Of a stretch of 64,000 nt of DNA, positions 2,990 through 53,469 are shown one piece after another. The DNA is from Cenococcum geophilum (taxonomy: Eukaryota), in the NCBI GenBank assembly GCA_050273025.1, contig CP158635.1:8432001-8496000 (forward strand), read 5' to 3'. The first letter of the stretch is position 1; every line of letters starts with the position of its first letter. A model generated the notes under the pieces. It saw only the letters and a list, made by a program, of their open reading frames with translations. It ran no database searches and was not told the DNA's origin. The translations under genes were made by a program, and so were the position numbers.

Positions 2990-3539
2990 AATTTTTTTCC
3001 CGGTTAGAAAAGAATCCGTTCTTTTATTACCTAGTTCCTATAAACCTTATTCTATAAGTTTTTACTCCTTAAAATATACCTTCTTACGTACCTTTTTAAG
3101 ACGGATTAACTAAGCGGACGCCGTAAGACGAGACTTAAGGGCCCGTTGCTGAGTATTGGCAGCCTCCCGTTCAGCGTCCTAAGAATGGCGTAATTTAGCA
3201 AGAGTAACAGACAGTTTATTATTTAGTTACGTAGTAGCAGATTAAATATAAAACCTTAAGATAAATTAATTAGGGAACCAGACGACTATTAAGAGTAATA
3301 GGTTATATATATTTAGCATTAGAAATAAAGCGAACGTTATAGGACGAACGAATATTTGCTTTAGTGCACTCTAAGTAAGAGGACGGTTATCGCAAAGATG
3401 GGTTTGCTAGTATAATATAAACTAACCCCTCTTTTAAACAGCGAAAACACAAAAACGGTATAATCTTACTAAGAGACAGTATCGCAGCGACAGTGCGAGC
3501 ACGACGAGCAGTTAAGGAAGAAGAAATTGCTTTAGGTAT
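2990..3539 (-). pseudogene. Antisense accessory ORF of Gypsy family A with Zn2Cys6-like cysteine spacing
   Basis: Minus translation (M)PKAISSSLTARRARTVAAILSLSKIIPFLCFRCLKEGLVY...SSYLECTKANIRSSY; three Tyr are TAT/TAC codons compatible with RIP of Cys; homologue at 31252-31790; 3' end approximate. Confidence 0.65.
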
Positions 3540-3647
3540 AATGAGCAATAATATTAACTAAATTAATTAGACGGACATTATACCTTTAGTAAATAACTTA
3601 GAGATGTTAGGAATCTTTAAGGATAAAGATAAAGAGGAGGGAGATGG

Positions 3648-4056
3648 TGTTACGGACGCTTTAAGTACAATATTATAACTACTAAGAGAGGAGTTAGAAG
3701 AAGCTAGTTAGTTAATTTAGGTATAGTCTAGGATAAAGCCGATAGAACTATGTAACGAGGAATGGTAACTAAGGTCATATAATGTAATCTATATAATCTG
3801 TATAATCTATAAGATCTATAACAGAGTAGATAGAGTACACGTATATTACGTATAAGGAGGATTTTATAGGAGTATGGTTATGTATTTAAGGACCCTTAGT
3901 CCCTACCTAGATAGTTCCTTCCTTATAGTGATTTTTAGAATATAATTAGAGTTAATCTATTAGGCAACCACTCCACTAATTATTATTACTTGCATTTCCT
4001 ATACACTTAGCCCAATAACGAGCCCACCGTAGTTCCTGCTACAAGGTTCCGTTATA
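3648..4056 (+). repeat. 3' LTR of Gypsy family A copy 1
   Basis: Starts TGTTACGG after the PPT, ends CCGTTATA (RIP of ...ACA); matches reverse complement of 30723-31143 and 48200-48620. Confidence 0.92.
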
Positions 4057-6234: not shown

Positions 6235-7640
6235 TTTCGCATAGAGCTTTATACGGAGGCTCTACGTATAGGTACTTTATATAAGGCTTTATATAAGGCT
6301 CTACGCAGGGCTCTATATTAGGGACTTTATATATAGAGGCTCTATATATAGAGGCTCTGCGTATAAAGGCTCTGTATATAAAGGCTCTATATATAGGCTC
6401 TATACAACGCTTTATATTAAAGACTCTGTATATAAAAAGATTTTATAGACAAAGGCTTTATATATAGAGGCTCTATATATGGAGGCTCTGTACAATGCTC
6501 TACACGACGCTTTACACGACGCTCTATATTAAAGGCTCTATATATAGAGGCTCTATGTACGGAAGCTCTATACGATACTCTGCACGACGCTCTGCACAAC
6601 GCTCCGTATCGAAGACTCTGCGTACGGAGACTCTGCGTTTAGAGACTCTGCGTATAAGGCTCTGCGTATAGAGGCTCTGCGTATGGAGGCTCTGCGTATG
6701 GAGGCTCTGCGTATGGAGGCTCTGCGTATAGAGGCTCTGCGTATAGAGGCTCTGCGTATAGAGGCTCTGCGTATAAAGGCTCTGCGTATAGAGGCTCTGC
6801 GTATAGAGGCTCTGCGTATAGAGGCTCTGCGTATAGAGGCTCTGCGTATAGAGGCTCTGCGTATAGAGGCTCTGCGTATAGAGGCTCTGCGTATAGAGGC
6901 TCTGCATACAAAGGCTCTGCGTATAGAGACTCTGCGTACGGAGGCTCTGCATATAGAGGCTCTGCACGAAGCTACGTACGCGGAGCCTCCGTATGCAGAG
7001 TCTTTGTATGTAGAGTGTCGTGCAGAGCGTCGTGCAGAGTCTCCGTAGGTAGAGCCTCCATACGCAGAGCCTTCGCACGCAGAGTCTTCGATACAGAGTC
7101 TTCGATGCAGAGCATCGTGCAGAGCATCGTACAGAGCTTCCGTACGTAGAGCCTCCATACGCAGAGCCTTCGTACGCGGGGTCTTCAATGCAGAGTCTTC
7201 AATGCAGAGTCTTCGAGCATCGTGCAGAGCGTCGCGCAGAGCGTCGTGCAGAGCGTCGTGCAGAGCCTCCGTATGTAGAGCCTCCATACGCAAAGCCTCC
7301 ATACACAGAGTCTTCAATGCAGAGCGTCGTATAGAGCCTCCATACGTAGAGCCTCTATACGCAGAGCCTCCGTAGGCAGAGCTCCCTTAACCTCCCCTTT
7401 TATAGAGCTTTGTGCAGGCGTCTGTTTATTAAGGTGTTCGTAGAGGCAACCGCAAAGGCGTTCGTAGAGGCGTTCGTAGAGGCGTTCGTAGAGACGTTCG
7501 TAGAGACGTTCGTACGGGCGTTCGTGCAGGCGTTCGTGCGAGCGTTCTCAGGGACTTCCTAGTGTATTAATACTGTATATTAAAAGAGCTTTACCGCTCC
7601 GTATAAAGCTTTAAGTAGAGCTTTGTATAGAGCTTCAGGT
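6235..7640. repeat. Minisatellite array (15-mer GAGGCTCTGCGTATA and 12-mer variants) in two oppositely oriented blocks
   Basis: About 20 tandem 15-mers at 6655-6965; orientation flips near 6975 to TACGCAGAGCCTC; GTTCGTAGAGGC 12-mers at 7440-7545. Confidence 0.95.
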
Positions 7641-7852
7641 AGAGCTTTTGCATGATCAAGACTAAGAATTTGATGTTCTGAAATTTTCGGATTTCGGGCG
7701 TTGGCGGTTTGGTGCGTATGGCCCACCATAGAAGGGACAGAATTCATGGCTCGAAATGAACATTGAGATCCCCGGATTCCGCGACGACGACGCATTGTCC
7801 GTGTTCCCGGCTTATGCTCACCGAGTCCCTGCCCGCTCGCGGGGAGCTAAAA

Positions 7853-8364
7853 TATAGGCTGTATATCAACAGGAGGTTCCACTCGATGTAGGCTTGAATT
7901 CCCTTCTATCTTCCGGGTTCCTCTAATTATGTCACAGGTTCTTCTTCTGTCTCCCCCACTTTCCTATCTTCTTGCTCCTGTCTATGACTACTCACCTCGC
8001 CCTGCTCACCTCTAGGTTGCCTGCGCTGAAGTCGGAGAAAGACGAAGATCCGCTCTTCGACGACGACTGGGATGCATCTATGTCTCTCTATCCCAAGGGA
8101 AGCGCAAAGTCCTCTACTGACAGCGAGGCTGCCAAACCTCCTGTCATCGTGCTTGCTATGACCGTCGGACAGAACGCCATCTTCGATCCCTGCAAAGAAG
8201 AACTTGTAGTTGTTGATGTTGTGCTAGCGGTCGCGTGCATCTCTTCTCAACCTACCGGTGCTCGTATTGTATCCATCCGGACCATTGATCCTACTTCCTA
8301 CCTCACTCCGCCTGGCATTCCTAACTCCATGAATAGTGAAGCACCGATAAGAGCTGGAAGCTGA
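7853..8364 (+). pseudogene. RRP42: Fragment of exosome complex subunit Rrp42-like (RNase PH family) gene
   Basis: YRLYIN..[intron remnant, ctaat...cag]..VLLLSPPLSY, frameshift, LLSMTTHLALLTSRLPALKSEKDEDPLFDDDW...FDPCKEEL...IRTIDP..LTPPG resembles the C-terminal half of Pezizomycotina Rrp42; N-terminus absent and C-terminus truncated. Confidence 0.75.
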
Positions 8365-9235
8365 TGTAGTATGTGACGGGCTTGTGACGAGTCCACTTCA
8401 TGAGATTGATTCTTATTGTTCGGGCTGTATGCTGTTCATAGCCCAGCTCGCGTTTCTATTATCCTCTAAAAGATGTACTCGGACTTACTTTACTGGCTCT
8501 TTGCTTTACCTTGCATGATTTGCTAGACACATTCTGGGAATAAGCGCGCAACTAAGATTGTCTAGTCATTTGGCTCGCAACTTTCTCGAGCCGCATTAGA
8601 AGCCGGGGCATGAACAATCCGAAACTGCGTCAGTGAAGCCTGAGGTCATCTTCAGCCCACATCTACGGCTTGGAGAGCATCAATCACTTCTTCTGCAACT
8701 CATCCCTTTTCGACCACCATCTTTACGATCATGGATATGAGGCCCCTCTTTATTCCTCCCCTTGGCGGCGTCCATACCCCAGAATTAGCCAATATCTCCC
8801 GCTGAGTCAGAGCATCGGCGCTAGAAGTCGGAGCAGTACCTCCAGTCGCAGAACTCCCTGAACAATTCAGCGATGCGGATTCCATGGTCCAGACCGCTGC
8901 TTTTGTGAGATACTACTCAGGTGCATTGCTGCCAAGGACGAAGGCTTGCGGCTGGCGAACGACTCGCCATATAGAAGACCGAATCGAAACTTAGCGGCAT
9001 TTTCCGCCCAAAGCCAAGTCGACAGCTGAACATCTGACAACAACTTTTGGTTTTGTGGATTCAAAGCACAGCACAGCGTTCAGCCGATTCTAGATTTCCT
9101 CCTGCTTCTACCCTCACGCCATCATCTGTACTCCACTTATGCACCTACCTCTTGCAAGAAGTTTAACTAAAAAGTTCATTGCTCATAGTTGATATTAAAC
9201 ACCGGCCTCTCAGTATACTACTCAAGCCACGCAGT

Positions 9236-11667
9236 ATGGAAGGCGGCATGCGGTGGGTAGGTTGTGATGTTGTACATTGTGGATTCTGGATCAACTGGAG
9301 TGGGTGTTCCACGCCCTCACACCCAAATCGACTGACTTTTACAGGCAAAGGAGCAGTTTATGGCTCAACCCTCACTCTTCCAACCTCATGGGGCTTAGTG
9401 CTCGCCGCGGTTCTGGCTATGTTCCTGAAACTAATCGGCGACCACCTCTGGGGAATCTCATGTTTTGCTATCCATCAGCTCAACTCGACACCGAAGAAGC
9501 AGGACGACATGTATCACCAGCTTCAGCTCATATTGCGAAACACTGAAAGTACAGCAACTCTCATTTCGAACTCCATCAAACTCGGTCACGGTCACAAGGG
9601 TGCTAGATTCGAGGCATACAGGCGGTCCTTACTTCTGGTCATATTAGCTAGCTTTCACACACTAGCTTTCTACGGAGCTGGTAGCTTTTCCTCGCAAGTG
9701 ATTACTAGAAATGACGGGGTTAGAACAAGGAGCAAGTCCTGCGGGTTAATGGCAGAGCCATCTGAATTTTCCAACATCACCGACGACGCAATATTTGAAT
9801 CCGCAAATGCCTTTCTGATCATGGCTGGCAACGGGTGGCGAAAGGCTAACAGCTACTCCCGAGCCTGCTATAGCCAGACTGGAGGTAATTCCACGGTCTG
9901 TAACATATACGTCCGCCAGGCCATTCCTTACAATCTCACATCAGTTCCTTGCCCTTTCGATTCAAAAATATGTATCGGGCCAGGTATTGAACTCGACCCT
10001 GGTTTGATACATTCAGACCTTCATCTCGGCCTAAACACGCGCCCCAAGGATCGAATCTCTGTCAGAAAGGTCTTGACTTGCGCTCCATTGGCCGGAGAGA
10101 ACTACAGCGATGGATTGCAAACAATTCCAGAAGGCCTAATTCTTGGCCCCGGTTATCCGTCAGGTACGTTATGGCAAGGCTGGAAGTTTGGGCCTAGCGT
10201 ATGGTTAGAAGACACTGCGTCGGAATACACGTTCGTCATAGATGAACCTTTCTACAGGTCAGGCGACAAAGCGTATAACATGATGTTGGTCTCCCTTTTT
10301 CATTGTCTCTAACTCCCAATCCTCGGAATTTAAGCTTGCCAGCATCGGATCGAGCATTGTGCTCGCGCGAGAAACATCACCTTCATCTCCCCTTCCACAT
10401 TTCGCTAATACTCTTCCTAATATACATATGATATTGTATAGTTGGTGTATTCAAGGTGCCACCAATCGCGCATCCTTTCTTTTTGACCATCCCACCACGA
10501 TTTGCAGTCTCTTCAGACCGATGAAAACTTCAAAGCTGATCTCATCACAGATGGTTGACCAAATTTCTCAATAACCGTACTCTCACCGAACACCCCTTCG
10601 AACCTATTCCCGAACTTCAGTCTAATGATTCAGACACGATTATCGTTGGCCTCATGAACCGCATGGTTTATCGGACCGCCATCCGAGACCCTTGGTATGA
10701 CGCACAGAATTGCAGCAACACCACCCTTATCAATGAGTTAACCACTGGCTGCAAAGCAACGAACATGCTATCCTGGATCGGATGTCAAGAACGCTACCAA
10801 TTCTGCACTCATAATGAGGAACACTGTACACCACTCACTGGCCTCTACGCGATTTCGAACAAGGTCGAGACATGGAAGGCACTGAACAAGAACCAACAAG
10901 CAGTGTTCGAACTACTGTGGCAGGTTATCTACGGCACACAACTCAATTTTCAGCTCGGCTTCGTTGGCCTCGATAGCTTGATAGCAAACGAATACCTCTG
11001 GCCTGACGGTTTCGGGCTCGCGGTCTCTGGCAAGCTCCCCGACAATCAATGGGAGATCGAAATAGCGAACTGGATGAACATCACCCTAGCCGCTATGCAA
11101 CGCTCTGTACTGTTATACGCCCGACCCCCTGAATTCGATGCAGGCCCAGGCATTAGCTCTCTGAAATATATTCGCTCCCCTTCAACACCGGAAGCGCAAC
11201 TCCTTTGCCACGAAGTCAAAGCAAGGAGTAAATCACACATATCTTTCTCAGTCCTCGGATTCTTCCTCACAATTTCGCTCGGTCTGCTCATCATTTCCAC
11301 CAACCTCACTTTAGCGAAGGTTGTTGGCGCTTTGCAGAACTACTCGGGGAAGGGTCATTATAAGAGATTGGAATGGATCGAGAATGGATTCTTCCAATTA
11401 CAGAGAATGGCGGCTGAGGGTAGGGGTGTAGGGCCTTGGACCAGAAGAGAGAAGGATGTGCCGATGCTGGTGGAATATGGACATTTGTTCAGCCTAACGG
11501 GAAGTAGTATGAAGGGGAGGTGGAGTCGTGCGGAGAGCTATGAGCTGAGGGAGATGAGAGGAGGGATGGACGATGGCGATGGGGATGAGGAGATCGTGGA
11601 AGGGAGAGTGATGGGATCGACCGAGGTGAGAGGGGAGGAGGATACGACGCAATTGTTGAGAAGTTAG
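9236..11667 (+). CDS. Uncharacterised fungal membrane protein, ~706 aa; predicted exons 9236-9299, 9345-10284, 10551-11667
   Basis: ORFs 9179-10312 and 10555-11667 join in frame across intron 10285-10550 (GTTGGT..ctgat..CAG); 45-nt intron 9300-9344 (GTGGGT..ctgac..CAG) gives WINWSKGAVYGSTLTL; N-terminal hydrophobic helices, Cys-rich region with many N-x-S/T sites, C-terminal TM (SVLGFFLTISLGLLII); no RIP signature. Confidence 0.85.
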
Positions 11668-11879
11668 GGAGCCTGTTGGTGGCGATATATGCGGTTTGGA
11701 ATCTGCGCTTGGTGGTTGAGAGTGGACGGAGGGCTTACGGATTGTGAAAGAGTCAAGCACCAGGTCTGCTGCTAAATGGCTAGATCAACGAGCTATTATG
11801 TCTCTCGCTAGAGGTTTACGGCAGCATAAAACCGTGCTTTTTACCGTCTGCTATCAAACAGCAGCAACAGCATCCTTTT

Positions 11880-12030
11880 CAGGGTTGCAAGTCAATCAAC
11901 GAGATTTCAGTATTGAATTGAATTGAATTGAGAGCCAAGATTCAATTAATTCAACCGATTGAAGGTTCGCTAGCTTTTCAATTCAATCGATTTGGAAGTC
12001 CCAGATGAATTAAATCGGTTGAGAAATATT
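11880..12030. mobile_element. Terminus of a hAT-like element
   Basis: Starts CAGGGTTGCAAG, followed by repeated ATTGA/TCAAT motifs like the subtermini of 29300-30685; marks the GC-to-AT transition; partner end not found. Confidence 0.45.
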
Positions 12031-12586: not shown

Positions 12587-13002
12587 ACGTAATCTATCAC
12601 TAAGTGGTGGCCATCACCATGTGGTGCCCCATCAAAACTTACTAAAAATTAGAAAATTCGTACTTTAATATCTTAACAACCACTTAATAATAAATTTTAA
12701 AAATTTAGATTTAGGTTTATATATATACTCCATAGCTACTATTAAAGTTACATAGTAAATAGTTCAGTAGTTTTTAAAATATTAAATTTTGGGGGCTAAA
12801 ATAAGGCCAAATTACTATATCTTAAATACTACTAAACTATTTACTATGTAACTTTAATAGCAGCTGTAGAGTATATATATAAATCTAAATCTAAATTTTT
12901 AACATTTATTATTAAGTGGTTGTTAAGATATTGGGGTGCGGATTCTCCAATTTTTAGTACGGCGCCATATGGTGATGGCCACCACTTGGTGATAGATTAC
13001 GT
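12587..13002. mobile_element. Fold-back MITE with Fot1/pogo-type ends, TA TSD
   Basis: TA|ACGTAATCTATCAC...GTGATAGATTACGT|TA; near-complete 416-bp palindrome around a central loop ~12790-12815. Confidence 0.93.
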
Positions 13003-16643: not shown

Positions 16644-19600
16644 TGTTGGTTATATAAGGTAATATTACGTAGCTACGGTTCGTAGATAGTATAATAATTA
16701 TTCTTTTTCTGTCTTTATAAGGGAGGGCGAGGAGCTTAAGGCTCCTTACCACGCTAGTGCCGCGGCGACACGTAACGGCAACTTGCCGCACATAACGGTA
16801 ACTTGCTATACGTAATGGCAATTTGCCTTATATAGTAACTACTTGCCTTTATTTCTAATACTAGCAACTCTTCTTTTATGGTTGCTATCTATATATATAT
16901 ACCGCTTAACTAGCGTAACAAATATTAATCCTCCTTACTTATTATTGCTATTATAATATAAGTCTCACTGTCCTAAAATTTTGCCCCTTAGTACGTGGTG
17001 CTTTCTTACTTAGGAGTTGTAGGTAGATATCTTATTTAGAGGGCCGCTAAGGCGCTAGTAGTAAGCGAGCTAATAGCGATTTTTTATCCCGGGGATAGAA
17101 AATCTTAATTAGCTAGGTTAAGTTAGGGTCTATAAAATATTATACTCCCCCCTCTAAAAAAAGTCTTAGCAAGAGAATCTAATTAATTAGACAACTTTAA
17201 CCGCCGGTTAAAGTTCCTAGATATCTTAAGACCTTACGTAACTAAGAAATTTCTAGGGAGTCCCTTTTAACCTAACCTTTAACTTATATATATAGAGTAT
17301 TTATATTAACAAACGTCTTTAGTGCCTTATTTAGGTTCGCCTTTATTATTATATCTACCGAGTTATCTTAGCCATTAATCTATTAAATTTTAAAGAGTTC
17401 TTAATGCTTGTAGGATTGCTAAAGTACTATAATGTTAATTATAAGGCGCTTTTTTTTTGTAGTATTAAGCTTAACTAAATACTTATAGAGGGAATATAAG
17501 TTAGTATATACGATTATAGGAATAACGGGAAGTTTAAGTTAATCTATAATTATCTTTAGGGTAGTTCTAATTATAATTACTATATTAACTTTACCAACTA
17601 TTCTATATATCTTTAACGCTAGAACGCTTTAAGTAACGCGCTTACTCTTAGTTAAGCTCTAATAGATAAGATTGCTGTGGATTATAAAGTTATTTTCTCT
17701 AGTAGACTTATTCGCGATAATAATCTTATATCCTAGCTAGGAGCTAAAATCTTTATTATTTATAAACGATTTATTAACAAATATAAAGAGCTTAGTAGTA
17801 GGAAGATTAATAGGCATATAGTGTAGTCCCTAGTTAAGATGGTTTATTTACCAGAAAAGACGTTTATTTAGGGTAAGAATGTCGTTCTTAGTTAGTTCCT
17901 AGTGTTAGGTGGTAACAGAGAGATTAAATAAAGCCTTAGGTTAATAGATAGAAGCAATATAAGCTCTGTAAGCGCGTTGCTTTATATATCCTTACTTTAG
18001 AGAATTAACATTAATAACGTTAATTTTCTTGCCTTAACCCTTCTAGCGTAAAGTAATAGAATCCTTATTTAGGGAGAGGATGCATTTATTAAAGAGTAAT
18101 AGTATTATTAAATTAAGCTTTTCCTTTAGCTTTGCTATAAGATTTATTTTTACTAGTTTATCTTCTTTAAGAGCTAAGAATTGGTTATCTCCTAAAATAA
18201 TTATATTATTAGTTTATATACTAACGATTCTAAATAGGGTTCCTATAGTTATAATAAGGAAGCAGGGATTAAATATAAAAGTAGTTATTAAAAGCTTCTC
18301 TTTATAGTGCTTGCTGTAGGTAGCCCACTAGTAAGTTCTTACCTTTGCGATTTTATATAATGGCTTAAGCATAACTATAATTATATCTTTAGGATACTAG
18401 TGGCGAATTTGCTCTAGAAGGTATGCTAATATTAAGCGCTAAAGGTGCGTCTCTAATTAGGTGTAGGCTTAAGTAATATCTTATAAATAAACTACTATTC
18501 TATTCTTTATTAAGGAGGGAGCTAATATAATAATAACTTGCTAACTAGCTTATTAAATTATAAGAGATTATATAAGAATTATCTCTTTACTATTATTGTT
18601 ATAACCTTAGATAATAAGCCTTAATTTCTTAAATAGGGCGTTAGTAGCTTTACCCTTAATCTTATTAACTATTTTTAACTTAAAGATGCAAACTCTATTA
18701 AACTTAGTAGGGTTATACTTCTTAAATTTAAAGACTCCCCTTATAATGAGACTATTAATCTCCTACTTATTAGATGCTTAGAAAGGAACTCCTAAAGTTA
18801 TAATATGACCTTCCTTTTAGAGCTGTTTTGCGAGTTTAAAGTTAGCCTTCTCCTTAGCTATTATAAAGGCTATTAATAGCTTAACTCTATTCTTAATAGC
18901 GGTAACAAATTGCTCTTTAAAATTAATAAGATATTAGTAATTCTGTGATCCCTTTAGGCGGCCTCTACTGCGTTATAGCTGCGGTGTATCTACTATAATT
19001 ATATTAGGATTATAGTCGCCTTTTAGAGCACGTTAATCGTGGTTCTCTTTTAGGGCGTTTTTTATAGCATCCTGTAAAGGCTTAGAACTGTTATCTTTAT
19101 AGTAAGGCTTAATAATAGTTAAACGGAATTAAGTGGGTCTATAAGGCATCTAAATAGTATAAGTTTAACTATTAATTATAATAAGTTAATATAGGCCTAA
19201 CTATTCTCCCTTTTTACGCTATACGCGTACCTTAGACTAGAGTGGTAGATTAAGCGTAGTTAAGATATTTAGGCTATTTCTTATTCCTAGTATATTGTTA
19301 ACCTAGTATATAGCGTAGAGACATTATACCTCCTTTATTGCCTTATGAATAGCCTTAGCTTATTATATAATAAAGGGAGATAATAGAAAATTGTTAGTTA
19401 TTTAAAGGTAGGCGCTAAAGACTAGTAATATAGGTATAAGTTTATCCAGGCTAGCGGAATTATTAATAGCTTTAATAGCTATTTATAAGGTAAGTTCTTT
19501 ATTAGCGTCCTTTAGTTCTAAAGAGATAATCTTATATACGCGGCGTAATAGCGTATAATATTGTTCTACTTTTTTAATACTATTATATACCTTAATAGGG

Positions 19601-22600
19601 ACTTCCTTAACCTTAATTACTATTGCCTTTATTTATTATTAAAACTCTATAGATAAGAAGTTCTTTTCTACATTATAGACGATTTAATTAGGGGGTCCTA
19701 AATAGACATTAATCTAGTATAATTAAAGGGTATCCTATATATTTCTGGCTAATATATCTTTTAAAAAACGCGCGGCTTAGAAGGAGGTTAAGAAGTTAAT
19801 AACTTAGAGTACTGGCTTACCGCTAAGATATATAACGTTAATAATAATATAGAAGTTAAAGTTGTAGTTATTTTTAAGGGTAAACTTAAATCGGCTAGGG
19901 GACTTCTGGTTTATTTAGTAGTAATAGTTATACTTTATAAAATGCTTAATTACCTTAACCTTAACTTTATAGCCTGCTTGCTAAAGGACCCTAAGTAATT
20001 AATAAATAGATAGGTGGCCAAAACGATAGTGTAGTTGGCGTAATTCTAACTTAGTTAAGTGGCTTTATATAATACTCTTTTCTAGTTAATAAAGGAGCAA
20101 CTAGGGGTGGCCCTACTTGCGTATAATAGGCACTTAATTGTCTCCCTAAATAAGTATATTTTTAAGGTTATTAAGCCTAACGCCTAATTTATTTATATCT
20201 TTAATATAAAATAGAAATAGAGTGTTTATAGGAATAATATAGAAAGTAATGTATCCTAAGGGGGTTTAGACCCTAATTATGCCGAAAGAGATTATAGTAC
20301 CCTTGCTAAAACGTATTATATATTAGCCTGCCATTAATTAGTTAATCTAGATAGAAGTATTAAGTTATTAGAGAGCTTAAACTTAAGGTTCTCCTACTAT
20401 AGATACTCCTACGGCCCTAGTATCTGGTATAATACTATAAAAGATGTTTATTAAGTATTTGTCGTTAAAGGAAAACGCGGAACTCTCCTTTAGCTTATTA
20501 AAGATATTTAATTTCATAATAGAATGGAGCGTAGATTAGTTATTAAGAACGGCGATGGTTTATATGCTATCTACCTTACTATACTTAGTAAAGTATTAGT
20601 TAAGAGAGTAGTCCTTAATTTCTATATCTATAAGGAGCTATTTAACCTTATTAACCTTACCTTTAAGATCTTTTACGCCTTTATATTAAACTAGGAAGCT
20701 TTAGAAGTAGGCTATAGTAACCTTATAATTTCTAACGTTTTTTATACTCTAACGAAACTTATTATATACCTCTTTTTACTTATTAAGGAAGTATCTAGTT
20801 AATTAGTAATTTGGCTTCTTATAAATATAGTACTTTTTTTAATAATTACTTTAAAATAAACCTCTATAAGGACCTCTATAATTACCTTATAGTTAACGTT
20901 AATTATACCCTCTTCTATATTCCCTACTACGGCCACTATATATTTAATTAGTCTAGTTATAATCGTATTAGTTAGGAATACTTAGTTAGGTAGGGTTTTT
21001 AGTATAGAACTGTTAAGATTCTTATATTTATATTATAGTACCTATAGCGGAGCGTAGCTTAGTATATACTTCTTTAAACGTATTTATAGGTTTATATAGC
21101 GCTAAGTTACACTTAGGAACGCTATAGCATGCTAAAATAACCTGGTCCCTTAGGCTGTTCTTATTTTAGTAAGTTTTAATAAGGCCACGTTAGATTTTCT
21201 AGAGTTTATTAAAGAGTAGTTAAAGGTACTCTAAATAAGTCTTTATTGGGTTAGAAGTAATAACTTTCTAAAACGTAGTTTCCCGCTATTTAAATATATA
21301 AAGTTGGCGATTCTTATTAGTCTTAAAGTGAGCTTTAGTAAGCTAAAGTATTATATTAAAGCTATAGTTTTTACCTATAATATAGTTATAATAGAATATT
21401 ACTACCCGTTCTTTTAACATAATAGAGAAAGCGTAGTAGTATTAGTGGTATTAAATTCTAACCTTATTATAACAGTTATAGAAAACCTATAGTTTTGCTC
21501 TAAGTATATTATATAATTCTCCTTTAAACTTCTTCTCTTTGTCTAAATATACCTTTATTAGATTCGTAACTTCTTATAGTAAAGGGTTACCGGTTAGCTA
21601 GAGTAGAGGAGCTAAAGGCAGCAAAGGTAGAGGAAGAGTACCTCTAGGTAGGAGAGTATCTTTAGGTGGGAGGGTAGCGTTTTAGGGGGTTTGTTCTAAA
21701 TTAAAGTTGCCTTTTAAAGAATATAGGTTAGTTCTAGGTTTCTATAGTTAATATATAATCTTAGCTTCCGTCTATACTAGTTCTTTTATACTAGTAATAA
21801 CGGCCTAAATATTACTAGTAATTAGGTTACCGTTCTTAGCAATATATACCCTATTTCTATAGAGGAAGTCTTAAAAATCCTAAACAATATTAAAATTACT
21901 AAGTGCCTAGGTATTAGCGGTCCATCCTATAAAATCCTCCCTAAAATATTCCCACAGCTATAAATTAGTATAGTGTAGGAGAAAGCCATTAACTTGTTTT
22001 ATGGTATAAGTTATTATATTAAAGGTAAATTTATCCTAATTTTTATTAATAAGTTTCGCGTATAAAGCTACCCCTAGTGGTAAAGAGTCTTCCTAGTTAT
22101 TTAAAGTAGGCGTAGCCATATTTTTAGAGGGAGGGAAGTGTTATTAGTATAGGGATTGTTGTTTAGTACGCGTTTATAATATATACTTATTATTTAGTAC
22201 GCGTTTATCGTTTAGTACGCGTTTATAATATATATTTACGATTATAGGGCTTAGGACTAGTTCTAGCCTTAAATTGCAAAGACTTATAAAGCGTATTATT
22301 CTGCGTAATAGACGCAAAAATCCGTAATCTTAAAAAGGCTTAGGACTAGTTCTGGCCTTTAAATCCTTAAATTTATAGAAGAGTTTTATTTAAGGTTTAG
22401 GACCAGTTCTAACCTTAAAAGACAGCTCCCTTTAGCATAAGTAGTACTAGTATAGTGGCTTATCTCTTCTTAGTGGAATACCTAGCTGCTCTATAGTATA
22501 ACAGTAATATTAACCACTAATTAGTGTTGGTTATACAAGGTAATATTACGTAGCTATAGTTCGTAGATAGTATAATAATTGTTCTTTTTCTATCTTTATA

Positions 22601-22741
22601 AGGGAGGGCGAGGAGCTTAAGGCTCCTCGCCACGCTAGTGCCGCGGCGACATGTGACGGCAACTTGCCGCACGTAACGGCAACTTGCCATACGTGATGGC
22701 AATTTGCCTTATGTGGTGACCACTTACCTTTATTCCTAACA
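16644..22741 (-). mobile_element. Full-length Ty1/Copia element, GalEa-like, RIP-degenerate; 217-bp LTRs at 16644-16860 and 22525-22741; TSD TATAT
   Basis: Paired TG..CA LTRs and 5-bp TSD; INT (HYRFGH ~19985), RT (DIT*AY, LKPLY), RNase H (KSKRVT*SVLA) in Copia order; palindromic CTAATTAG directly after the 5' LTR instead of a tRNA PBS, as I recall being reported for fungal GalEa elements. Confidence 0.92.
17045..17235 (-). promoter_or_regulatory. Conserved palindrome/CCAAT module in the Copia 3' UTR (shared with 38770-38965)
   Basis: GAACTTTAACCGGCGGTTAAAGTT and GATTTTCTATCCCCGGGATAAAAAATCGCTATTAGCTCG align colinearly with the Gypsy B 3' UTR; function unknown. Confidence 0.6.
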
Positions 22742-23351: not shown

Positions 23352-26300
23352 AGTAAAACTTATTTACTACGTTTTACCTTTAGATAGATAGGTAGATAAA
23401 AAGGTAAAATTAAACTATAGAGTAGTACCTTAGGGCATTCTATAACTTTAAATAGATAAATTAAGCCAGTCTCCTTACTACGGCGGAGTTTACTTATAAT
23501 AACTTAATCCACGCCTCTATAGAAATAACCCTATTTTAGGTAAATAAGGCTAAAACGCTATTTAGAGATAAGGGTCTAAGAGAAGCCTATAGAGGTAGTA
23601 TATTAAAGTATGCTAAAGAATTGGCCAATAAATTAAAGATAATTTACGATAAATTAAGGCAATCCTTAGTTAAGGCTTAAGAATTCTAAGCAAAATACTA
23701 TAATATAGGTCATAAACCTATAGAATTTAAGGAAGGAGACTATATATAGCTAGCGGGTAAGTATATATAGATAAGTAGACCTAAGGAAAAGCTAGATTAT
23801 AAAAACTTTGGACTCTTTAAGGTTATAAGGGTAATTAATATATAGGTATATTAGCTTAAATTACTAGAAAATTAAAATACCTATAATGTGTTCTATATGT
23901 CCCTCTTAGAAAAATATATACTAGATATAGTTAGTAGGAGATAATAGCTTATACCTTATTTTATAGATATACCCAAATTAGAATAATAGTATATTAAGGC
24001 TATTTTAGGCTAAATAAAAGACGAAAATAGAAATATAAGGTATTAAGTATATTAGAAAGGATATAGTCTAAAAGACACTATATAAAAACTAGCTAAAAAC
24101 CTATTAGAAACTATAGTAAAAGCTTATAAGCGCACTTTAGGATAAAATAGGCTACGGACTACCTATAACTTAGACCTTAAAAGTAAAAACTATAATAAAC
24201 TAGGACGGCCCCTGAAGAAGAAAAAGGGTGCTAAATAGTAACTCTTTTTTAATTTCCCCCTAAATAGGGTTTTATAGGTTTTAGTAAGACCATAAAAGGA
24301 CTTAATTAATCTAACTAGGATAATAATATAATTAGGAACGAATTGGAACTAATATAGTAAAATTTGGTTTAGGGAGCACTAATAGTAACCTATAGCTAAA
24401 AGAGCCAGTTTATACCTACCTAGGTAAGGAGTATAAAAGAAAAGGGCTAACCTATTACTATTTTTCGTTAACTAACCTAAATATAATAAAAGAAACTAAA
24501 CTAAAGAAGGCCGCCGCTTAAAGGGACCTATAAGATATTAACCTAGCTAAAAAGGGTTAAAAAAGGACTACTTATAAAGCGCTAGTACCAAATCCCGCTA
24601 AACTAAAGCTATTAGCTAAATTATCCCTAACTAAAGAAGAATAAGCTATATTAGTACTAGGATTACACTTTAGATTTCCTAAAGTATTAGGAGAAGTTAT
24701 ATCGCTACTAACTGGCTTAAAATGGCTAAGGGGATTAGCTTAAGGCGTAGGAGGGGCTATAGAGGTTAGAGTGCTGCTAATAAGCTCTATATTATCGAAA
24801 TAGTTAATAATATAGCATAAAGTAGTGTTAATACTAGTTATACTCCCTTTAAGAAAATTAAGCCGGGCCCCTAGGTCCTTAACGTTATAAGAAAGGCGCT
24901 AAAGGAGGTTAGTATAATTATTAAGCTCTATAATAACCTTAAAAAGAGTAACTAGAGTATATTATACCTAAAATAGACTAGTTAGCATTAAGAACAACTA
25001 AAGGATATTAATAAAACTTATAGTGGTAAGAGCTTCCTAGAGACGTTCTAAGTTTTATTTTAGTAAATTAAATATACTATTTAACTAGATAGATAGGACT
25101 CTATTAGAAGAAGTTAGGGCTAGTTTTTATAGAAAGAATAGGATAAGAGCTAGAATATCTTTTTATAGAGTAAAGGTTAACTTATTAGGCTTAGTAGGAG
25201 TAATAGGGTTAAAAAAGATAGTATAAGACTTCTTAGTAGTAGTAGAGCTAAATCTAGCCAAAGGGCTAGAATAGATCTTTATAGTACTAAAACGGGGCAC
25301 CTTAGTTATAATTACCTTATTAACTCCAGGAAGGTCCTCTTTAGAAAAATTAAGGTTAATTTTAACCTACTTGCGTTTAGGTATAGCTTTATAACACCGT
25401 TTACTACTAAATAAGAATAAATAGGGCGTGGGAGTAGTAAATAAGGCACTAAAGGCAATAGAGCTAAAAGATGCCTTAGTAATACCGTATTTAGCTAAAG
25501 CGGCCCTAATAAAGCAATTATAACGTAGAAGTTCTTTACTAGACCTATTAAAGTAATAAGTGCCTATATAGGCCGTAAGATTATTATTTTTAAGAATATA
25601 GTAGCTATTAAGGTTAATAGGAAACTAAAAGGATTAGAAGAAATCACTTATATATAAAGCGCCTTTATTAAAACTATATAAGCACTATTTACGTCACCTT
25701 AAAGAGTCTTAATTTAGTCCGCATTTTCTTAATTAATAGCTAAATTTAGGTCCTAAGCGAGCTTCTAAAATTTAATAGATTAGTTAAATAAGTGTTTAGG
25801 ATTTTATAGGACTAGTTAGTTTAATAAGTGTAACACTTAACTAAAAAGGTATAATTTAGATTTAATAGGAACTAACCTAGCTATAATAAAGCGAACTATC
25901 TCTAAAGTATCTGCGATAGTAAAAATTAGAAATAAATTAAGCCGAATTAAAACCGGCTGTAGTAGAGATAGAATAAACTATATTAAACTGTTAAACCTCC
26001 CTATTCTAGAACTATTTAAGCTACTTTAGGAACTTATAGTGATGTGCACGACCAGCTTCACCCCCCTCCCTTAGCGAGTTGCAGATTCGGTACGCGCATC
26101 CAATTTCGCCTGGTTGCCACCAGCTGTACATCGTAATTGTAGCGAACGGCTGTGGCTGCACGCAAGGACCTTTTTGGTTGCCCTGGAGAATCGCCTTAGT
26201 TGGCCAGGAGAATCAAATTGAAGACGACGCTTCCTTTTCTTCCCTTAGCTATGCCCCCCCATTGTGCCCGCCAAAACACGAATACAACGCTGTCTCTGCA

Positions 26301-27247
26301 GAGAGGTTGACGAAATTTGGCAATATCGTACGGGTGGAAACCTCACGATATTTGACGAAGATCACGACACTGCGGAAGGCCGCCAGAAGTAATGTTCTTG
26401 TAGCCAAGCATACGGCTTCGCTACAATTACTATGTACAGCTGGTGGCAACCAGGCGAAATTGGATGCGCGTACCGAATCTGCAACTCGCTAAGGGAGGGG
26501 GGTGAAGCTAGTCGTGCACATCACTGTAGAGAAATAATTATAGTAACTATTAGTTGTTAGGGTCTATTTTAATTTATTATTATAAATTTAGGTATAACTC
26601 TTTCCTATTACTACTATATTAGGCTAAAGGATAATAGACTTAGGTAAGTAGGTCCTAAATAAAGAAGAGAAAAGAAACGAAAAAAGGAGTAGACTATTGC
26701 TAATTAAAGTTAGTTAGAATATTTAGGACTATAAGGGTTAGAATTATTAGTAGAATTATTAGTAGAATTATTAGTAAGGACTAAAAGAGCTTATAAAGGG
26801 CTAGAGAGGAGTAAATTAGACTAAAAAGTAGGATAAAGCCTAAGAGTAAGTTATTAAGATTAATAAGGGAGTGACTAAAGAGTTTAAAATTTTTTATATT
26901 TTAGAACTATTATATAAAATAGTGCTAAGCCACTAGTCCCTAGTTCCTTAGCTAAGAAAGCTTAATTCTTAAAGAGCTATATTAAGGATTTTAGGGTTAA
27001 AATCCGTAAAAAGGGGGGCTTTATTATAAATAGCAACGATCTAGTAATAATTAGAGTAGATAAGGACTTATTACCTTATACGGAGCCTAAGTAGACCTAA
27101 GTTAGAATAATAAGGTATATTTAGTCCAAGCTATAGTTAAAATTAGACTAATTAGGGGCTTTACCTTAATTTAGTAAAGTCCTAACTAGATGGCGCTAGA
27201 TAAAACTATAAGTAGCTACTCTAGTAGGGGGATAGCTATTTATAATA
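23352..27247 (+). mobile_element. 3' part of Ty3/Gypsy element F (integrase C-terminus, chromodomain, long 3' region, LTR 27022-27247)
   Basis: RPKEKLDYKNFGLFKV..YNVFYMSLLEKY and chromodomain 23990-24130; PPT AAAAAGGGGGG ~27008; LTR bounded by 13-bp inverted repeats TATTATAAATAGC/GCTATTTATAATA. Confidence 0.8.
26037..26526. mobile_element. Tc1/mariner-type MITE, 490 bp, ~110-bp TIRs, TA TSD, almost RIP-free
   Basis: TA|(T/C)AGTGATGTGCACGAC...GTCGTGCACATCACTG|TA; long near-perfect TIRs; GC-balanced within AT-rich flanks. Confidence 0.93.
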
Positions 27248-29299: not shown

Positions 29300-30685
29300 C
29301 AGTGTGTTCGACAGGCAATCAATCGCAGGCAGGGGCCCCTGGTTGCGATTGATTGGCCAAAATCCTGGTTGCGATTGATCGACTGATGAGAATTAGCTAA
29401 TTGATTGAAGTGATTGCGATTGATTGCTAAGAATTACCCCATTGGGTAATCCGTGATAAAGAATCTAGGTACTAAACATTTTTTTAGCAGAGCTTCGCCT
29501 TATATAATAAATATACACTCTAAAAATAAGTCCTTCCTATACTTCTTATTTATCCTTATCCTTTTCTATATGCCTTTTATTTAACCAGCTCTTCTAAAGC
29601 TCTAGCGCCTTAATTATCTTATTAGCCAGGCGGTTTCGGTTATTAGTAATTACGTTAGCAGAGCTAAACTTACGCTGGCACTTAGAGCTTATTGCTAGTA
29701 TAGAAAAGAGGTCTATTGCGCGTTGTTAATTAGAATAAGGGAATTACGTATTAATGGTGTTAAATTTAATGATAATAAAGACGGTAAGTAGAGCTCTACG
29801 TGGAGCCTTGGCAGAGCTTCGTGCAGAGCCTTTGGTAGAGCTCTATGCGGAGCCTTAGCAGAGCTCCGTGTAGAGCTTTGAGGGAGCTTCGTAGAGAGCC
29901 TCTGGCAGAGCTTCGCGCAGAGCTTTCTAGCAGAGCCTTTGGTAGAGCCTCTGACTCAGTTTTAGCCCGTGCTATATTTAACTAAGAGTCTACTAATCTA
30001 TAATAATTCTAGCTTAAAGGTAGGCCCTATAATTAATTTCCCTAGCTACCAAATCTTTACTGGACCCTCTCCGCATGGGGCTCCGCATGGAGCTCTACAC
30101 GGGCTCTGCACGGAGCTCTACTAAAGGCTCTGCCAGAAAGCTCTGCTAGAAAGCTCTGCACGAAGCTCTGCCAGAGGCTTTCTACGAAGATCCCTTGAAG
30201 CTCTGCATGAAGCTCTGCCAAGGCTCCGCATAGAGCTCTACTGAGGGTAAGGGCGAGGTTCTAGGCCTTCGTTTGGCTCGTTGGAAGGGATTAAGAGGCA
30301 TAGTATTGGAGGTGGTTAAGGTAATGGAGGTTAGAAGACAATTAAAAAACTCTATAGGGACAGGCGTAAGTAAATACAGCTAATAAAACGCGTTCTATAG
30401 ACTACGCTAAACCTATTAATCTTAGCGTATTTAATTGCTGCATTCCTAAGCGATCTAATTAGATTAATACTGCACACCTTATTAAAACCGGACACCTTAA
30501 CACCAAAAGTCTATCACGAACCACCCCTCTATTGGTGAGATTTTATATCAATCAATCGCAGGCGCTTGATGAGAATTCATGGTTGCGATTGATTACTTGA
30601 TGAGAATTCCTGGTTGCGATTGATTGCTTATTAATCAATCAATCGCAGGCGCGCTCGTCGAGCGGCTTGCCTGTCGAACACACTG
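29300..30685. mobile_element. Non-autonomous hAT element, 1386 bp, 8-bp TSD ATTCTATC
   Basis: TIR CAGTGTGTTCGACAGGCAA at both ends; subterminal GATTGATTG/CAATCAATC repeats; internal inverted GCAGAGC arrays at 29790-29950 and 30060-30245. Confidence 0.93.
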
Positions 30686-31251
30686 ATTCTATCTAAAGCG
30701 CGTTTTTATATCGCTTACTATTTATAACGAAGCCTTATAGCAGGAACTACAGTAGACTTATTAATAGGCTGGGTGTGTAGGTAAATAAGAAGTTAACAAC
30801 GTAATAATAACTAGTGGAGTGGTTGCCTAATATATTAACTTTAATTATATTCTAAGATTCACTACAAAGGAGAGAACTATTTAGGTAGGGACTGTAGTCC
30901 TTTAAATATATAACCGTACTCCTAAGAAATCCCCTTTATATATAAGGTACGTGTGCTTTACTTACTCTATTATAAATCCTATAGATCTTATAAATTATAT
31001 AGATTACATTATATAACCTTAGTTACCATTTCTTATTATATAGCTTTATCGGCTCTATTCTAGACTATGCCTAAATTAACTAACTAGCTTCTTTTAACTC
31101 CTCTCTAAGTAGTTATAATATTGTATTTAAAGCGTCTATAACACTATCTCCCTCCTCTTTATCTTTGTCCTTAAAGATTCTAAATATCTCTAAGTCGTTT
31201 ACTAAAGGTGTAATATCCGTCTAATTAATTTAGTTAATATTGTTACTTATT

Positions 31252-31790
31252 ATATCTAAAGCTCTTTTTTTCTCTTTAACTATTTATTATATTCGCACTA
31301 TTACTATAATATTATCTCTTAGTGAGATTATACTATCTCCGTGTTCTTATTATTTAAAAAAGGGGTTAGTTTATATTGCGTTAGCGAGTCTATCTTTTTA
31401 ATAACTGTCCTTTTACTTAGAGTGCACTAAAGTAAATATTTATTTATCCTATAACGTTCGCTTTGTTTCTAATGCTAAATATACACAACCTATTACTTTT
31501 AATAGTTGTCTAGTTCCCTAATTAATTTATCTTAGGGTTTTATATTTAATCTATTACTATATAGCTAGATAATAAACTATCTATTACCCTAGCGGAATTA
31601 TATTATTCTTATAATGCTAAATAAGAGGCGGCCGATACTTAGTAACGGGCCCTTAAGTCTTATCTCGCTGCGTCCGCTTAGTTAATCCGTCTTAAGAAGT
31701 AAAAACTTATAAAATAAGGTTTATAGGAACTTAGTAATAAAAAAATAGATTCTCTTCTATCTAAGAAGGAAATAGATTTAAGTAGTTCGG
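31252..31790 (+). pseudogene. Antisense Zn2Cys6-like accessory ORF, second copy
   Basis: (M)SKAL...LSLSEIILSPCSYYLKKGLVYIALASLS...YLECTK; colinear with 2990-3539. Confidence 0.6.
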
Positions 31791-32334
31791 CAACTGCTCT
31801 TCTTAGGTCCCCTTTAGGTAACTTATTCTTTAACAATCTTTCTTTATTAATACTATCTAACCTAATTTCTTCTAATACTCCTATACCTTTCCTATAGCGT
31901 TTTTTAGATTCTCTAGTAGCTCTTAAGTAGTTTTAGTGTAGCCTATCTACTTAACCTTATACTATATTTTATCGTTAATATCCTTATAATTAACAATTTT
32001 TAAAACTTGCTATTTGTCTTCCTTTTATCCTCTATATATATCTACCTTATAAACTAATAGCTTAATATTCCTATATGCTAGTTCTAGCATCGCGATATAC
32101 TATATAGGGTAGATCTTTATCTTAGCTAATAGGTTTAACTTAAATATAACTAGTAAAATCCTCTACGTAATTTTAAAAGGTCTTAGTCTAACGTAGTCTA
32201 ACTTCTTACTTAGTTATTAACTTTTAAAAAATTTGTATAGTAGCTATACTTTATCACCCTCCTTAAAATCTAGTCCCTTAGATCTCTTAGTATTATAATA
32301 CCTTTTTATTCTCTTTTATACTTTCTTTACTAAT

Positions 32335-49686: not shown

Positions 49687-50112
49687 ACGTATTCCACTAT
49701 CGAGCCGGCAGAACCATCGAGCTGGCAGATCCATTTCCCCACCAAAAATCGTAAAAATCACAATATAATATCTCAACAACCACTTAATAATAAATTCTAA
49801 TAATTTAGATTTAGACTTTTATATACACTCTGCAGCTTCTATTAAAGTTGCATAGTAAATAGTTTAGTAGTTTTTAAGGTATTAAAATTTGGGGGCCAAA
49901 ATATAGCCAAATTACTATATCTTAAAAACTACTAAACTATTTACTATGCAACTTTAATAGAAGCTGTAGAGTGTATATAAAAGTCTAAATCTAAATTATT
50001 AGAATTTATTATTAAGTGGTTGTTAAGATATTATATTGTGATTTTTATAATTTTTGGTGGGGAAATGGATCTGCCGGCTCGATGGTTCTGCCGGCTCGAT
50101 GGTGGAATACGT
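49687..50112. mobile_element. Fold-back MITE with Fot1/pogo-type ends, TA TSD, in the Copia D LTR
   Basis: TA|ACGTATTCCAC...GTGGAATACGT|TA; 426-bp near-palindrome; core homologous to 12668-12930. Confidence 0.93.
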
Positions 50113-53100: not shown

Positions 53101-53149
53101 TATCTACTTTGGGCGTTAAGGGGGAAGCCTCTCGCAGAGGCTCCAAATT

Positions 53150-53400: not shown

Positions 53401-53469
53401 CTTGATTCGATCGATCGATCGAATCGTTTATCGTGTTCGCTGGCTGGTCGTTCGAACGGTTGTCGTGTG

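Follow-up and report, generated by a model that had tools for sequence, protein, structure and literature searches.

The window analysed here, 64,000 nucleotides of Cenococcum geophilum DNA (GenBank assembly GCA_050273025.1, contig CP158635.1, positions 8,432,001 to 8,496,000 of the forward strand), carries two long terminal repeat (LTR) retrotransposons of different superfamilies, a GalEa-type Ty1/Copia element (16644-22741, minus strand) and a Ty3/Gypsy element termed Gypsy B (32335-39254, plus strand). Each holds one copy of a common non-coding block between pol and the 3' LTR. A preliminary description, made from the letters of the sequence, had taken this block for a single structured module. 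All positions are those of the window.

Host elements and the common block

The Copia element is 6098 bp long and is bounded by LTRs of 217 bp (22741-22525 and 16860-16644, 91% identical) with TGT..CA ends; a 5-bp target-site duplication (TSD; ATATA) flanks the complete element. The hairpin-site motif CHSeq1 (CTAATTAGT) was located directly after the 5' LTR (22524-22516, minus), and RNase H ends in VDIIIK, compared with LADIITK in the relative L019 (translations read by eye; L numbers denote the collected loci described below). GalEa elements are characterised by TGT..CA LTRs of about 235 bp, a 5-bp TSD, a length of about 6.1 kb, CHSeq1 instead of a primer binding site (PBS), and an ADxxTK motif (PMC5445492). 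The element at 16644-22741 agrees with them in LTR ends and length, TSD, size, CHSeq1 and an ADxxTK-like RNase H end, and the label "GalEa-like Copia" of the preliminary description is retained. A Pfam search with the translation, X being placed at stops, returned no family; the assignment to Copia therefore rests on structure, on motifs read by eye (including, by eye only, the order of integrase before reverse transcriptase (RT)) and on tblastn, which ties the element to a Copia cluster of relatives.

Gypsy B, likewise complete, is 6920 bp long, with LTRs of 187 bp (32335-32521 and 39068-39254, 95% identical) and the TSD CTAAT, and is nested inside a third element. RT, RNase H and integrase lie on one strand between the LTRs, as expected of Ty3/Gypsy. 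Pfam detected RVT_1 (1.3e-12), RT_RNaseH (1e-19) and RT_RNaseH_2 (3.7e-19); integrase and chromodomain were recognised by eye only in Gypsy B itself, and Pfam finds integrase and SH3 domains in the collected locus L042 and integrase, SH3 and chromo domains in L022.

By blastn within the window, the reverse complement of 17062-17229 was colinear with 38770-38947 over 180 columns (71.7% identity, E 1.8e-23). Alignment of the block with MAFFT gave 121 identical positions, 28 transitions, 18 transversions and 10 gap columns, and outside the block identity fell to 44-46%. The colinear homology claimed earlier is thus real, and the coordinates agree with the equal position and sense orientation claimed with it: both copies are sense to pol in the order pol, block, polypurine tract (PPT) and 3' LTR, they start 13-14 nt past the pol stop, and they end 100-190 nt before the PPT. 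In Copia the stop is TAG (17272-17274, minus; frame of a family consensus ending ..RVKG*) and in Gypsy B TAA (38755-38757, plus; consensus ending ..GRPPC*), both consensus sequences being corrected for repeat-induced point mutation (RIP; "de-RIP" below). The putative working PPTs, assigned by position, are AAAAGAAGAG in Copia (16868-16877, minus; 7 nt before the 3' LTR) and GGGGAGAGGAG in Gypsy B (39054-39064, plus; 3 nt before it).

The left part of the block, core A, occupies 17171-17237 (minus; AGATAT..AGG; nhmmer E 2.5e-19) in Copia and 38764-38830 (plus; AGATGT..TAG; nhmmer E 7.2e-18) in Gypsy B. It contains palindrome 1 and a RIPped CCAAT box 1, which reads TCTAATTAATTAGA in Copia. Palindrome 1, AACTTTAACCGGCGGTTAAAGTT, was found to be identical in the two copies (17193-17215, minus, and 38784-38806), as had been described; no further site was found in the window with up to three mismatches allowed, and 100 shuffles gave no match. 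The right part, the palindrome 2 unit, consists of CCAAT box 2, palindrome 2 and an inverted CCAAT box 3. It lies at 17064-17118 (minus; nhmmer E 2.3e-17) in Copia, with palindrome 2 in C..G form at 17078-17104 (minus), and at 38891-38945 (plus; nhmmer E 2.8e-16) in Gypsy B, with palindrome 2 in G..C form at 38905-38931. The spacer of Gypsy B (38831-38890, plus) has a 3' part (..GTTCTGCCGACC..) that resembles the last ATTCTGCC repeat in the U3 of an L069-type LTR. In Copia a box ACTAGCGCCTTAGCGGCC lies 3' of palindrome 2 (17042-17059, minus) and has its counterpart in the Gypsy B LTR upstream of TATA: positions 225-259 of the reverse-complemented Copia sequence matched 32390-32424 (86%, E 5e-5) and 39123-39157 (83%, E 4e-4) by blastn. 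These are equivalent stretches of U3 in the 5' and the 3' LTR (39123-39157, plus, in the latter), where an inverted CCAAT box of the LTR's own and a ACTAGCGACTTGGCGGCC box, ACTAGCG..GGCGGCC as in the block, are followed by the TATA sequence TATTTATATATAA.

Transposon DNA of the window gave strong RIP indices (TpA/ApT 1.6-1.9; (CpA+TpG)/(ApC+GpT) 0.36-0.44), for comparison with 0.71 and 1.29 in the genic stretch 7500-12000. The preliminary description had set a more divergent spacer against conserved palindromes and had concluded that the block is under selection. The spacer does diverge, mostly through RIP: the two copies are 56% identical, or 83% with transitions ignored, and the divergence of the Gypsy B spacer from its Copia counterpart is dominated by transitions. 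Palindrome 1 contains neither CpA nor TpG in either copy and therefore cannot be eroded by RIP; palindrome 2 has no such site in Copia and two in Gypsy B, whereas the Gypsy B spacer has nine. Because RIP spares palindrome 1 and meets few sites in palindrome 2, the contrast is not evidence of selection, and that conclusion does not stand. RIP can imitate a pattern of conserved palindromes round a divergent spacer, as this case shows.

Relatives, anatomy and transfer of the block

Relatives were collected from metagenomes by the exact 23-nt palindrome 1, and all counts are among the matches listed. The scan of the metagenome collection returned at least 123 loci, mostly from two sets of long, RIP-like contigs, and a core profile (nhmmer) identified 128 unique instances in 585,636 nt of collected loci. 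Of these, 116, both window copies included, are of fungal transposon type, and 110 fall into six clusters by upstream flank. At least six LTR-retrotransposon families, drawn from both superfamilies, carry the block; five have it in sense orientation relative to pol and one has it inverted. Clusters 0, 2, 4 and 5 are chromovirus-type Gypsy, and cluster 1 and part of cluster 3 are GalEa-type Copia (Pfam, tblastn). An upstream pol in sense orientation was found for 31/40 instances in cluster 0, 17/18 in cluster 1, 17/17 in cluster 2, 11/14 in cluster 3 and 10/11 in cluster 4; the flanks of the other instances in these clusters are short or degraded. In the three long cluster 5 loci with pol matches (L016, L022, L024) pol is downstream and antisense, so that the block is inverted and still lies between pol and the PPT.

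The distance from palindrome 1 to the end of the element is 430-545 nt, and core A precedes the PPT in every family in which the LTR was placed. Core A was present at 58 of the 65 pol 3' ends with sufficient sequence downstream; one of the other seven belongs to the window's third Gypsy, whose pol ends near 2889 and is not followed by a core A within 900 nt. Two other assignments were considered and dropped: cluster 5 as a small non-autonomous element, since pol was found on the other side of an inverted block, and a position inside the LTR for cluster 0c (L006/L027 type), where pol precedes the block in sense orientation and L027 proved to be truncated. Apart from these families, 12 of the 128 instances (L015, L023, L026, L029, L040, L078, L082, L094, L095, L106 and others) belong to an unrelated repeat family of other metagenomes with the identical 23-mer, preceded by GGGCCCGTTTCACCA, followed by GACTTAACCGGCCGATTTGACG and accompanied by further TTAACCGG motifs; its occurrence there may reflect chance or a common protein-binding site.

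The anatomy was defined from de-RIP family consensus sequences and an alignment of 31 copies. Core A (about 75 bp) consists of RAGATGTYNRGG, the perfect 23-bp palindrome AACTTTAACCGSCGGTTAAAGTT, and GTCTRATTGGYYAGATTC .. CTTGCCAAGAC; past the palindrome it holds an inverted RRCCAAT(C/T)AG box and then a GCCAAG box. Its third piece is a textbook CCAAT box, TCTRRCCAATYAGAC, when read on the opposite strand. The palindrome 2 unit (about 55 bp) consists of RRCCAATYAGG, ATTTTCYATSCC-N-GGSATRGAAAAT and CGCYATTGGCTYG, usually with a ACTAGCGCCTTGGCGGCC box next to it; palindrome 2 itself, 27 bp long and centred on CCSGG, lies between two inverted CCAAT boxes. In the de-RIP consensus and in less mutated copies the three boxes read GACCAATCAG, AGCCAATTAG and GAGCCAATAG/GG, all with the CSAAT pentamer, and a palindrome arm begins 4-5 nt after each of them. 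The CCAAT boxes proposed earlier thus hold after de-RIP, as RRCCAAT(C/T)AG.

The block did not prove to be one unit; it consists of two separable parts and a PPT-like tract. The palindrome 2 unit is present in 18/18 copies of cluster 1, 13/17 of cluster 2, 19/40 of cluster 0, 8/14 of cluster 3, 0/11 of cluster 4 and 10/10 of cluster 5. It lies 83-145 nt after palindrome 1, in one orientation in clusters 0a, 1 and 2 and as the reverse complement in 0b, 3 and 5. It also occurs inside LTRs. The segment L044:2318-2547 is a 230-bp insert starting with TGTGACGG; its flanks are contiguous Gypsy pol in at least 20 other loci and overlap by 5 bp, and it is therefore a solo LTR with its target duplication. 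In this LTR the palindrome 2 unit lies 32 nt from the start and is followed by a ACTAGCGCC box. An LTR of the same type in L039 follows a G-rich PPT and an L042-like pol, and the roughly 70 nt between that pol and the PPT contain no core A. Related LTRs in L069 and L030 have ATTCTGCC repeats upstream of the palindrome 2 unit, and the 3' LTRs of L039 and L069 hold the unit. To judge from these placements, the palindrome 2 unit is U3-type promoter DNA, placed in one Gypsy family inside the LTR at a short distance before a TATA-like element; it is the only part of the block, and this the only family, for which a position inside the LTR and upstream of TATA was found.

The origin of the Copia copy follows from matches of its parts. 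Positions 3-102 of the reverse complement of 16990-17260 comprise the core, AAGAC and 45 nt of flank. They match L090 and L101 at 94-95% identity (E about 1e-34; L090: 95% over 100 nt, E 2.5e-34), and in both loci the upstream sequence is Gypsy pol. A weak match (86% over 29 nt, E 8e-4) relates positions 100-128 to the PPT of L090 and the start of its LTR; here a PPT-like tract, TTTTTTTAGAGGGGGGAG, is followed by LTR-start-like sequence (17145-17162, minus). Positions 149-251 match the U3 of the L039, L044 and L069 LTRs at 79-88%; 17104-17039 (minus), for example, is 88% identical to L044:2363-2428 in the solo LTR. The right half of the Gypsy B copy (positions 131-208 of the segment compared) likewise matches the U3 of L069 (74% over 78 nt, E 5.6e-12). 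Because the three parts match in order, the foreign, Gypsy-like sequence in the Copia 3' non-coding region, 17039-17258 (minus) at its full extent, is colinear with a Gypsy 3' end (core, PPT, 5' U3) with internal deletions. On this evidence the block is a mosaic that has been exchanged between the Copia and Gypsy superfamilies, and the exchange put forward in the preliminary description is borne out by the likeness between the Copia copy and pre-PPT sequence from a Gypsy family. Open-access literature text yielded neither the sequence aaccggcggttaa nor a report that Copia and Gypsy have a non-coding module in common.

Other repeats surround these elements. The third Gypsy-type element is present in two copies of opposite orientation (1-3924 and 30867-32335/39255-41712; arms 80-85% complementary), and Gypsy B was inserted into one of them, its flanks 30867-32335 and 39255-41712 matching the reverse complement of 1-3924. 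Related foldback structures of MITE-type look at 12640-12959 and 49679-50120 (83-86% alike) have arms of 153 and 214 nt that are 88-94% complementary and 14 nt apart. Further inverted repeats lie at 26035-26528 (arms of 112 nt, 97% complementary, 270 nt apart) and 29835-30241 (105 nt, 90%, 197 nt). Minisatellite arrays at 6250-7400, 53117-53360, 53436-53909, 54028-54747, 58949-59189 and 59602-59892 (periods of 15, 8/12, 20, 12, 35 and 30 nt) stand at borders between RIPped and GC-normal DNA. In Gypsy C-type families (L090 and L101 at about 360-400; L039, L069) a small hairpin, AAGCCTAAGGGCAGGCTT, lies right before the PPT, TTTTTTAGAGGGGGGGG.

Candidate functions of the block

The tentatively preferred reading, whose probability is put a little short of even, is that the block is a recombined chromovirus-type Gypsy 3'-end fragment that would act at the DNA level as a docking platform for the CCAAT-binding complex (CBC) and a palindrome-binding dimer. 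A mosaic Gypsy 3'-end fragment would have recombined into the short gap between pol and PPT of other LTR-retrotransposon families, GalEa-type Copia included, most likely by a nested insertion with later deletion or by a switch of template from one co-packaged RNA to another. The palindromes may have served as pause or annealing sites, and the palindrome 2 unit would enter other families in either orientation. On DNA the cassette would form a putative docking site for the host CBC and for a dimeric factor on the palindromes. Docking would raise transcription from the adjacent LTR promoter, an effect that could matter where the internal 3' end lies upstream of an LTR, as in one-LTR circles or tandem elements. 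DNA docking is favoured because of the LTR location in one family, the independence of orientation, and variation that respects the CCAAT consensus over the stems. Purines upstream of CCAAT belong to the NF-Y consensus, and the three boxes fit CSAAT with upstream purines when RIP is allowed for. The CSAAT pentamer is the site described for the fungal CBC (PMC7144946), whose sites are also the subject of PMC2831313.

Several points weigh against this reading. Core A and the palindrome 2 units of the window lie outside the LTR, upstream of the PPT, so that the cassettes in the window are never copied to the 5' end; each would be an upstream enhancer of the 3' LTR without obvious benefit to its element, and we know of no fungal upstream activating sequence that acts from 5-6 kb downstream. 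Of the 58 pol 3' ends with core A, 54 have it in sense orientation to pol, which would suit an RNA function too. Inversions do not exclude RNA, since perfect palindromes yield an equal RNA hairpin in either orientation, and at stem position 3 of palindrome 2 a swap with at most one intermediate in 74 units is what selection for base pairing predicts. Collection by exact palindrome 1 biases both the conservation of that palindrome and the picture of a core A that is always present, seven of the 65 ends being without it. Finally, a manual count on the de-RIP consensus did not find the composite CBC:HapX motif CSAAT-N12-RWT at box 1, where the triplet ACC stands at +13 and the TTAA half-sites at +10 and +24 lie just beyond the 11-23 range. 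The composite is described as RWT 12 bp downstream of CSAAT with a TKAN half-site at 11-23 bp (PMC7144946).

A possible, though unlikely, alternative is an RNA-level cis element, in which the palindromes would form hairpins in genomic RNA just past the pol stop and serve a host-factor-dependent step common to both superfamilies, such as export or stability of unspliced RNA, RNA dimerisation and co-packaging by way of self-complementary sequence, or the shaping of RNase H/PPT selection. Heterodimers between families with a common palindrome 1 would explain the recombination too. The predominant sense orientation of core A (54 of 58) and its start 13-14 nt past the stop codon suit this alternative, and both hairpins are predicted in both window copies (whole-module z about -2.1 in each; 4 and 5 of 200 shuffles fold equally well). 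With 31 core sequences RNAalifold kept the palindrome 1 hairpin with an AGAT/ATCT extension, whereas it returned no informative covariation in the core (covariation term -0.41). A closing stem round core A (GTCTT/AAGAC, GCAAG/CTTGC), considered as a candidate, was discarded: its 3' side is constant, its 5' side occurs in shifting registers, and RNAalifold did not return it. A search of the whole window against Rfam 15 gave no match at the gathering threshold; the best sub-threshold scores (23.3 bits against a gathering value of 74, MIR6288, and 17.8 against 80; E 0.03-0.72) are noise.

Pairing statistics were compiled for 74 palindrome 2 units, the stem positions of which vary almost solely by RIP transitions. 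Position 3 is C:G-derived in 50 units, G:C-derived in 23 and TT in one, and both states occur inside each of clusters 2, 3 and 5, as compensatory change from C:G to G:C on RNA would have it. The C-G/G-C difference between the window copies, noted before, is therefore present; its value as covariation is offset by position 7, at which uncompensated transversions (G.G or C.C) mark cluster 5 as well as L039 and L044, two LTR copies with little RIP. The A..T form of palindrome 2 (L096 and others) was rejected as a third compensatory state, since TpG and CpA on the two arms make it a RIP product of the G..C form. Beside the CCAAT pentamer, at k=22, 30 units have a Watson-Crick pair, 21 G-U and 23 other combinations, which a degenerate RR fits better than a stem; because the CCAAT flanks vary as R/R, the putative outer stem and hairpin 1b are broken and the RRCCAAT box is kept. 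The absence of the palindrome 2 unit from cluster 4 and about half of cluster 0, and its place in the U3 of one family, also argue against an RNA element. The preliminary description had left the choice between RNA structure and DNA enhancer open; a DNA promoter or enhancer fits the right half better, because the palindrome 2 unit sits in the U3 of real LTRs and in both orientations, and the RNA structure is not supported by informative covariation in the core (RNAalifold).

For RNA mapping, a raw RNA-seq run and two sets of metatranscriptome contigs were compared with 37300-39500 at 80% likeness, alongside a set of DNA contigs. DNA depth was roughly even over the region. RNA depth was zero over pol and peaked on the palindrome 2 unit (38895-38947: 594, 44 and 1.7 in the three RNA sets), with lower values on core and LTR; eight raw RNA-seq reads fell on 37300-39500. 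The RNA contigs match 38895/6-38947 only and then continue into flanks that resemble the U3 of Gypsy C-type LTRs (..TGCCATATTCTGCCGACC.. before, CCACTAGCGCCTTAG.. after), and one RNA contig at the core carries a Copia flank. Other, less mutated elements that bear parts of the block are thus transcribed; a separate small RNA or transcript start is not implied. One further RNA contig, at 38785-38816, matches palindrome 1 and ATCTAATTA only and has GC-normal flanks unlike any family seen, so that the core may also occur in another expressed context.

It is likewise unlikely that the block is a neutral relic, that is, recombination or nested-insertion debris in the sole dispensable gap that was copied with each family's burst. 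Its palindromes would look conserved through RIP immunity and the requirement of the search, and would possibly be mere hot spots of template switching. The predominance of RIP transitions among the differences, a palindrome 1 free of CpA and TpG, and ascertainment on the exact 23-mer agree with this explanation. So do a mosaic whose extent varies by pair, with spacings of 83-145 nt, presence or absence and inversions, the PPT/LTR-start-like tract of the Copia copy, which appears vestigial and without evident use, and a region that is a graveyard of nested, RIPped elements. Against it, core A occupies one gap across at least six families of two superfamilies, for which repeated capture or long retention would be needed; the core is near-invariant across families with unrelated immediate flanks; and RNA libraries contain copies in other, less mutated flanks.

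A more speculative and rather doubtful proposal would make core A itself a selfish "common-currency" cis element that plugs unrelated superfamilies into one host factor and spreads on its own account. RNAs with a common self-complementary sequence would pair, be co-packaged and recombine there, so that core A, needed for a common step such as genomic RNA export or dimerisation or LTR activation, would be a parasite of parasites with a phylogeny uncoupled from pol.

An independent small mobile element (miniature inverted-repeat transposable element (MITE), short interspersed nuclear element (SINE) or foldback) inserted separately in each family is highly improbable: the Gypsy B copy stands between direct repeats of 7 bp (GGTTAAG), L002 and L003, both in nested, truncated DNA, are alike only over -76..+105 (182 bp) round the core, and an unrelated repeat family has the identical 23-mer, but the shared block has no terminal inverted repeats, poly(A) or A/B boxes at consistent ends, GGTTAAG is confined to the window Gypsy B (de-RIP consensus GGTTGAG and GGCTAAG; Copia CTTAAG and CTTACT), the common extent varies by family pair without fixed ends, the position between pol and PPT recurs in every family with a mapped 3' end, and 585 kb with 116 instances gave no clear stand-alone copy with target duplications. 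A MITE or SINE, named beforehand as the finding that would overturn the module, is accordingly rejected. Just as improbable is a short peptide from the ATG of AGATGT (M-[S/L]-[R/W]-NFNRRLKLSNW.., 17-40 codons), although the frame can be followed by eye at 17229-17180, at 38773-38825 and in the consensus of each of the six families, the ATG is kept in most copies with near-invariant columns, and the G/C centre of palindrome 1 is synonymous in frame (CGG/CGC): W is followed by L, S or P, each family has a length and a C-terminus of its own, the inversion in cluster 5 removes the ATG from the sense strand, and coding does not account for a perfect 23-bp palindrome, so that the frame is probably a coincidence.

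Known designs and significance

The constitutive transport element (CTE) of Mason-Pfizer monkey virus, a structured, host-factor-dependent element of about 150-200 nt with internal two-fold symmetry between the last gene and the 3' LTR, and the PAL and CYC sequences of Ty1 are precedents for an RNA-level element. The CTE is comparable in place; the block differs from it in having no Rfam match, in being invertible and partly inside an LTR, and in lacking supporting covariation. A further precedent is the Conserved Hairpin Site of GalEa elements, which is palindromic, hairpin-forming and non-coding and has an "extended" form conserved between families of one species (PMC5445492). That site is found only in Copia, where it takes the place of the PBS at the junction with the 5' LTR, whereas the block follows pol and is common to Copia and Gypsy; the available portions of PMC5445492 mention no 3' module for GalEa elements. 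The RIPped region of CCAAT box 1 reads the CHSeq1 9-mer CTAATTAGT in many copies, and less mutated copies suggest that this identity is probably RIP convergence (CTGATCAGT compared with CTGATTGGT before RIP).

Sirevirus LTRs carry short, highly conserved palindromic motifs with a CGG-CCG core shortly upstream of the TATA box (PMC2829016), and extra PPT copies cluster just upstream of the Sirevirus 3' LTR (PMC2829016; PMC4728375); participation in the recombination of RNAs packaged together has been discussed as a role. The palindromic motifs near TATA and the PPT-like tract recall these features, as does the Gypsy C-type hairpin AAGCCTAAGGGCAGGCTT before the PPT, which resembles the Sirevirus inverted repeat round the PPT; the resemblance is one of design only, and no sequence homology is claimed. 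Sirevirus-type architecture belongs to plant Copia elements with multiple identical PPTs, an inverted repeat at the PPT/LTR junction and repeated CGG-CCG motifs in the LTR; the hosts here are fungal GalEa Copia and Gypsy elements, and the Copia block has one PPT-like tract that is not identical to the working PPT. Sirevirus motifs belong to one plant Copia genus and are inherited within it; the present block occurs in fungal Copia and Gypsy elements, has CCAAT boxes, lies partly outside the LTR and bears signs of lateral exchange. Template switching between co-packaged RNAs yields chimeric LTR retrotransposons, and recombinant families can amplify (PMC1950507).

As far as the cited sources describe them, none of the closest known designs, namely Sirevirus motifs, the GalEa hairpin site and template-switch recombinants, crosses superfamilies. 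CRM elements of maize reportedly offer an example of inter-element recombination. To our knowledge, template-switch recombinants join related families of one lineage, whereas here a non-coding block crosses the Copia/Gypsy divide.

Non-coding control regions of LTR retrotransposons are usually treated as evolving within a family. Here, within one fungal lineage, a core of about 75 bp and a promoter-like unit recur in GalEa-type Copia as well as in several families of chromovirus Gypsy. Were the block neutral, it would still serve as a clean natural marker for recombination events in which replication intermediates of Copia and Gypsy took part; such events are rarely documented. If it is functional, different superfamilies would depend on one host factor, for which the CCAAT-binding complex is a concrete candidate, and would trade its docking site among themselves; this would offer a handle on the mutual regulation of a transposon-rich, RIP-active fungus and its transposons.

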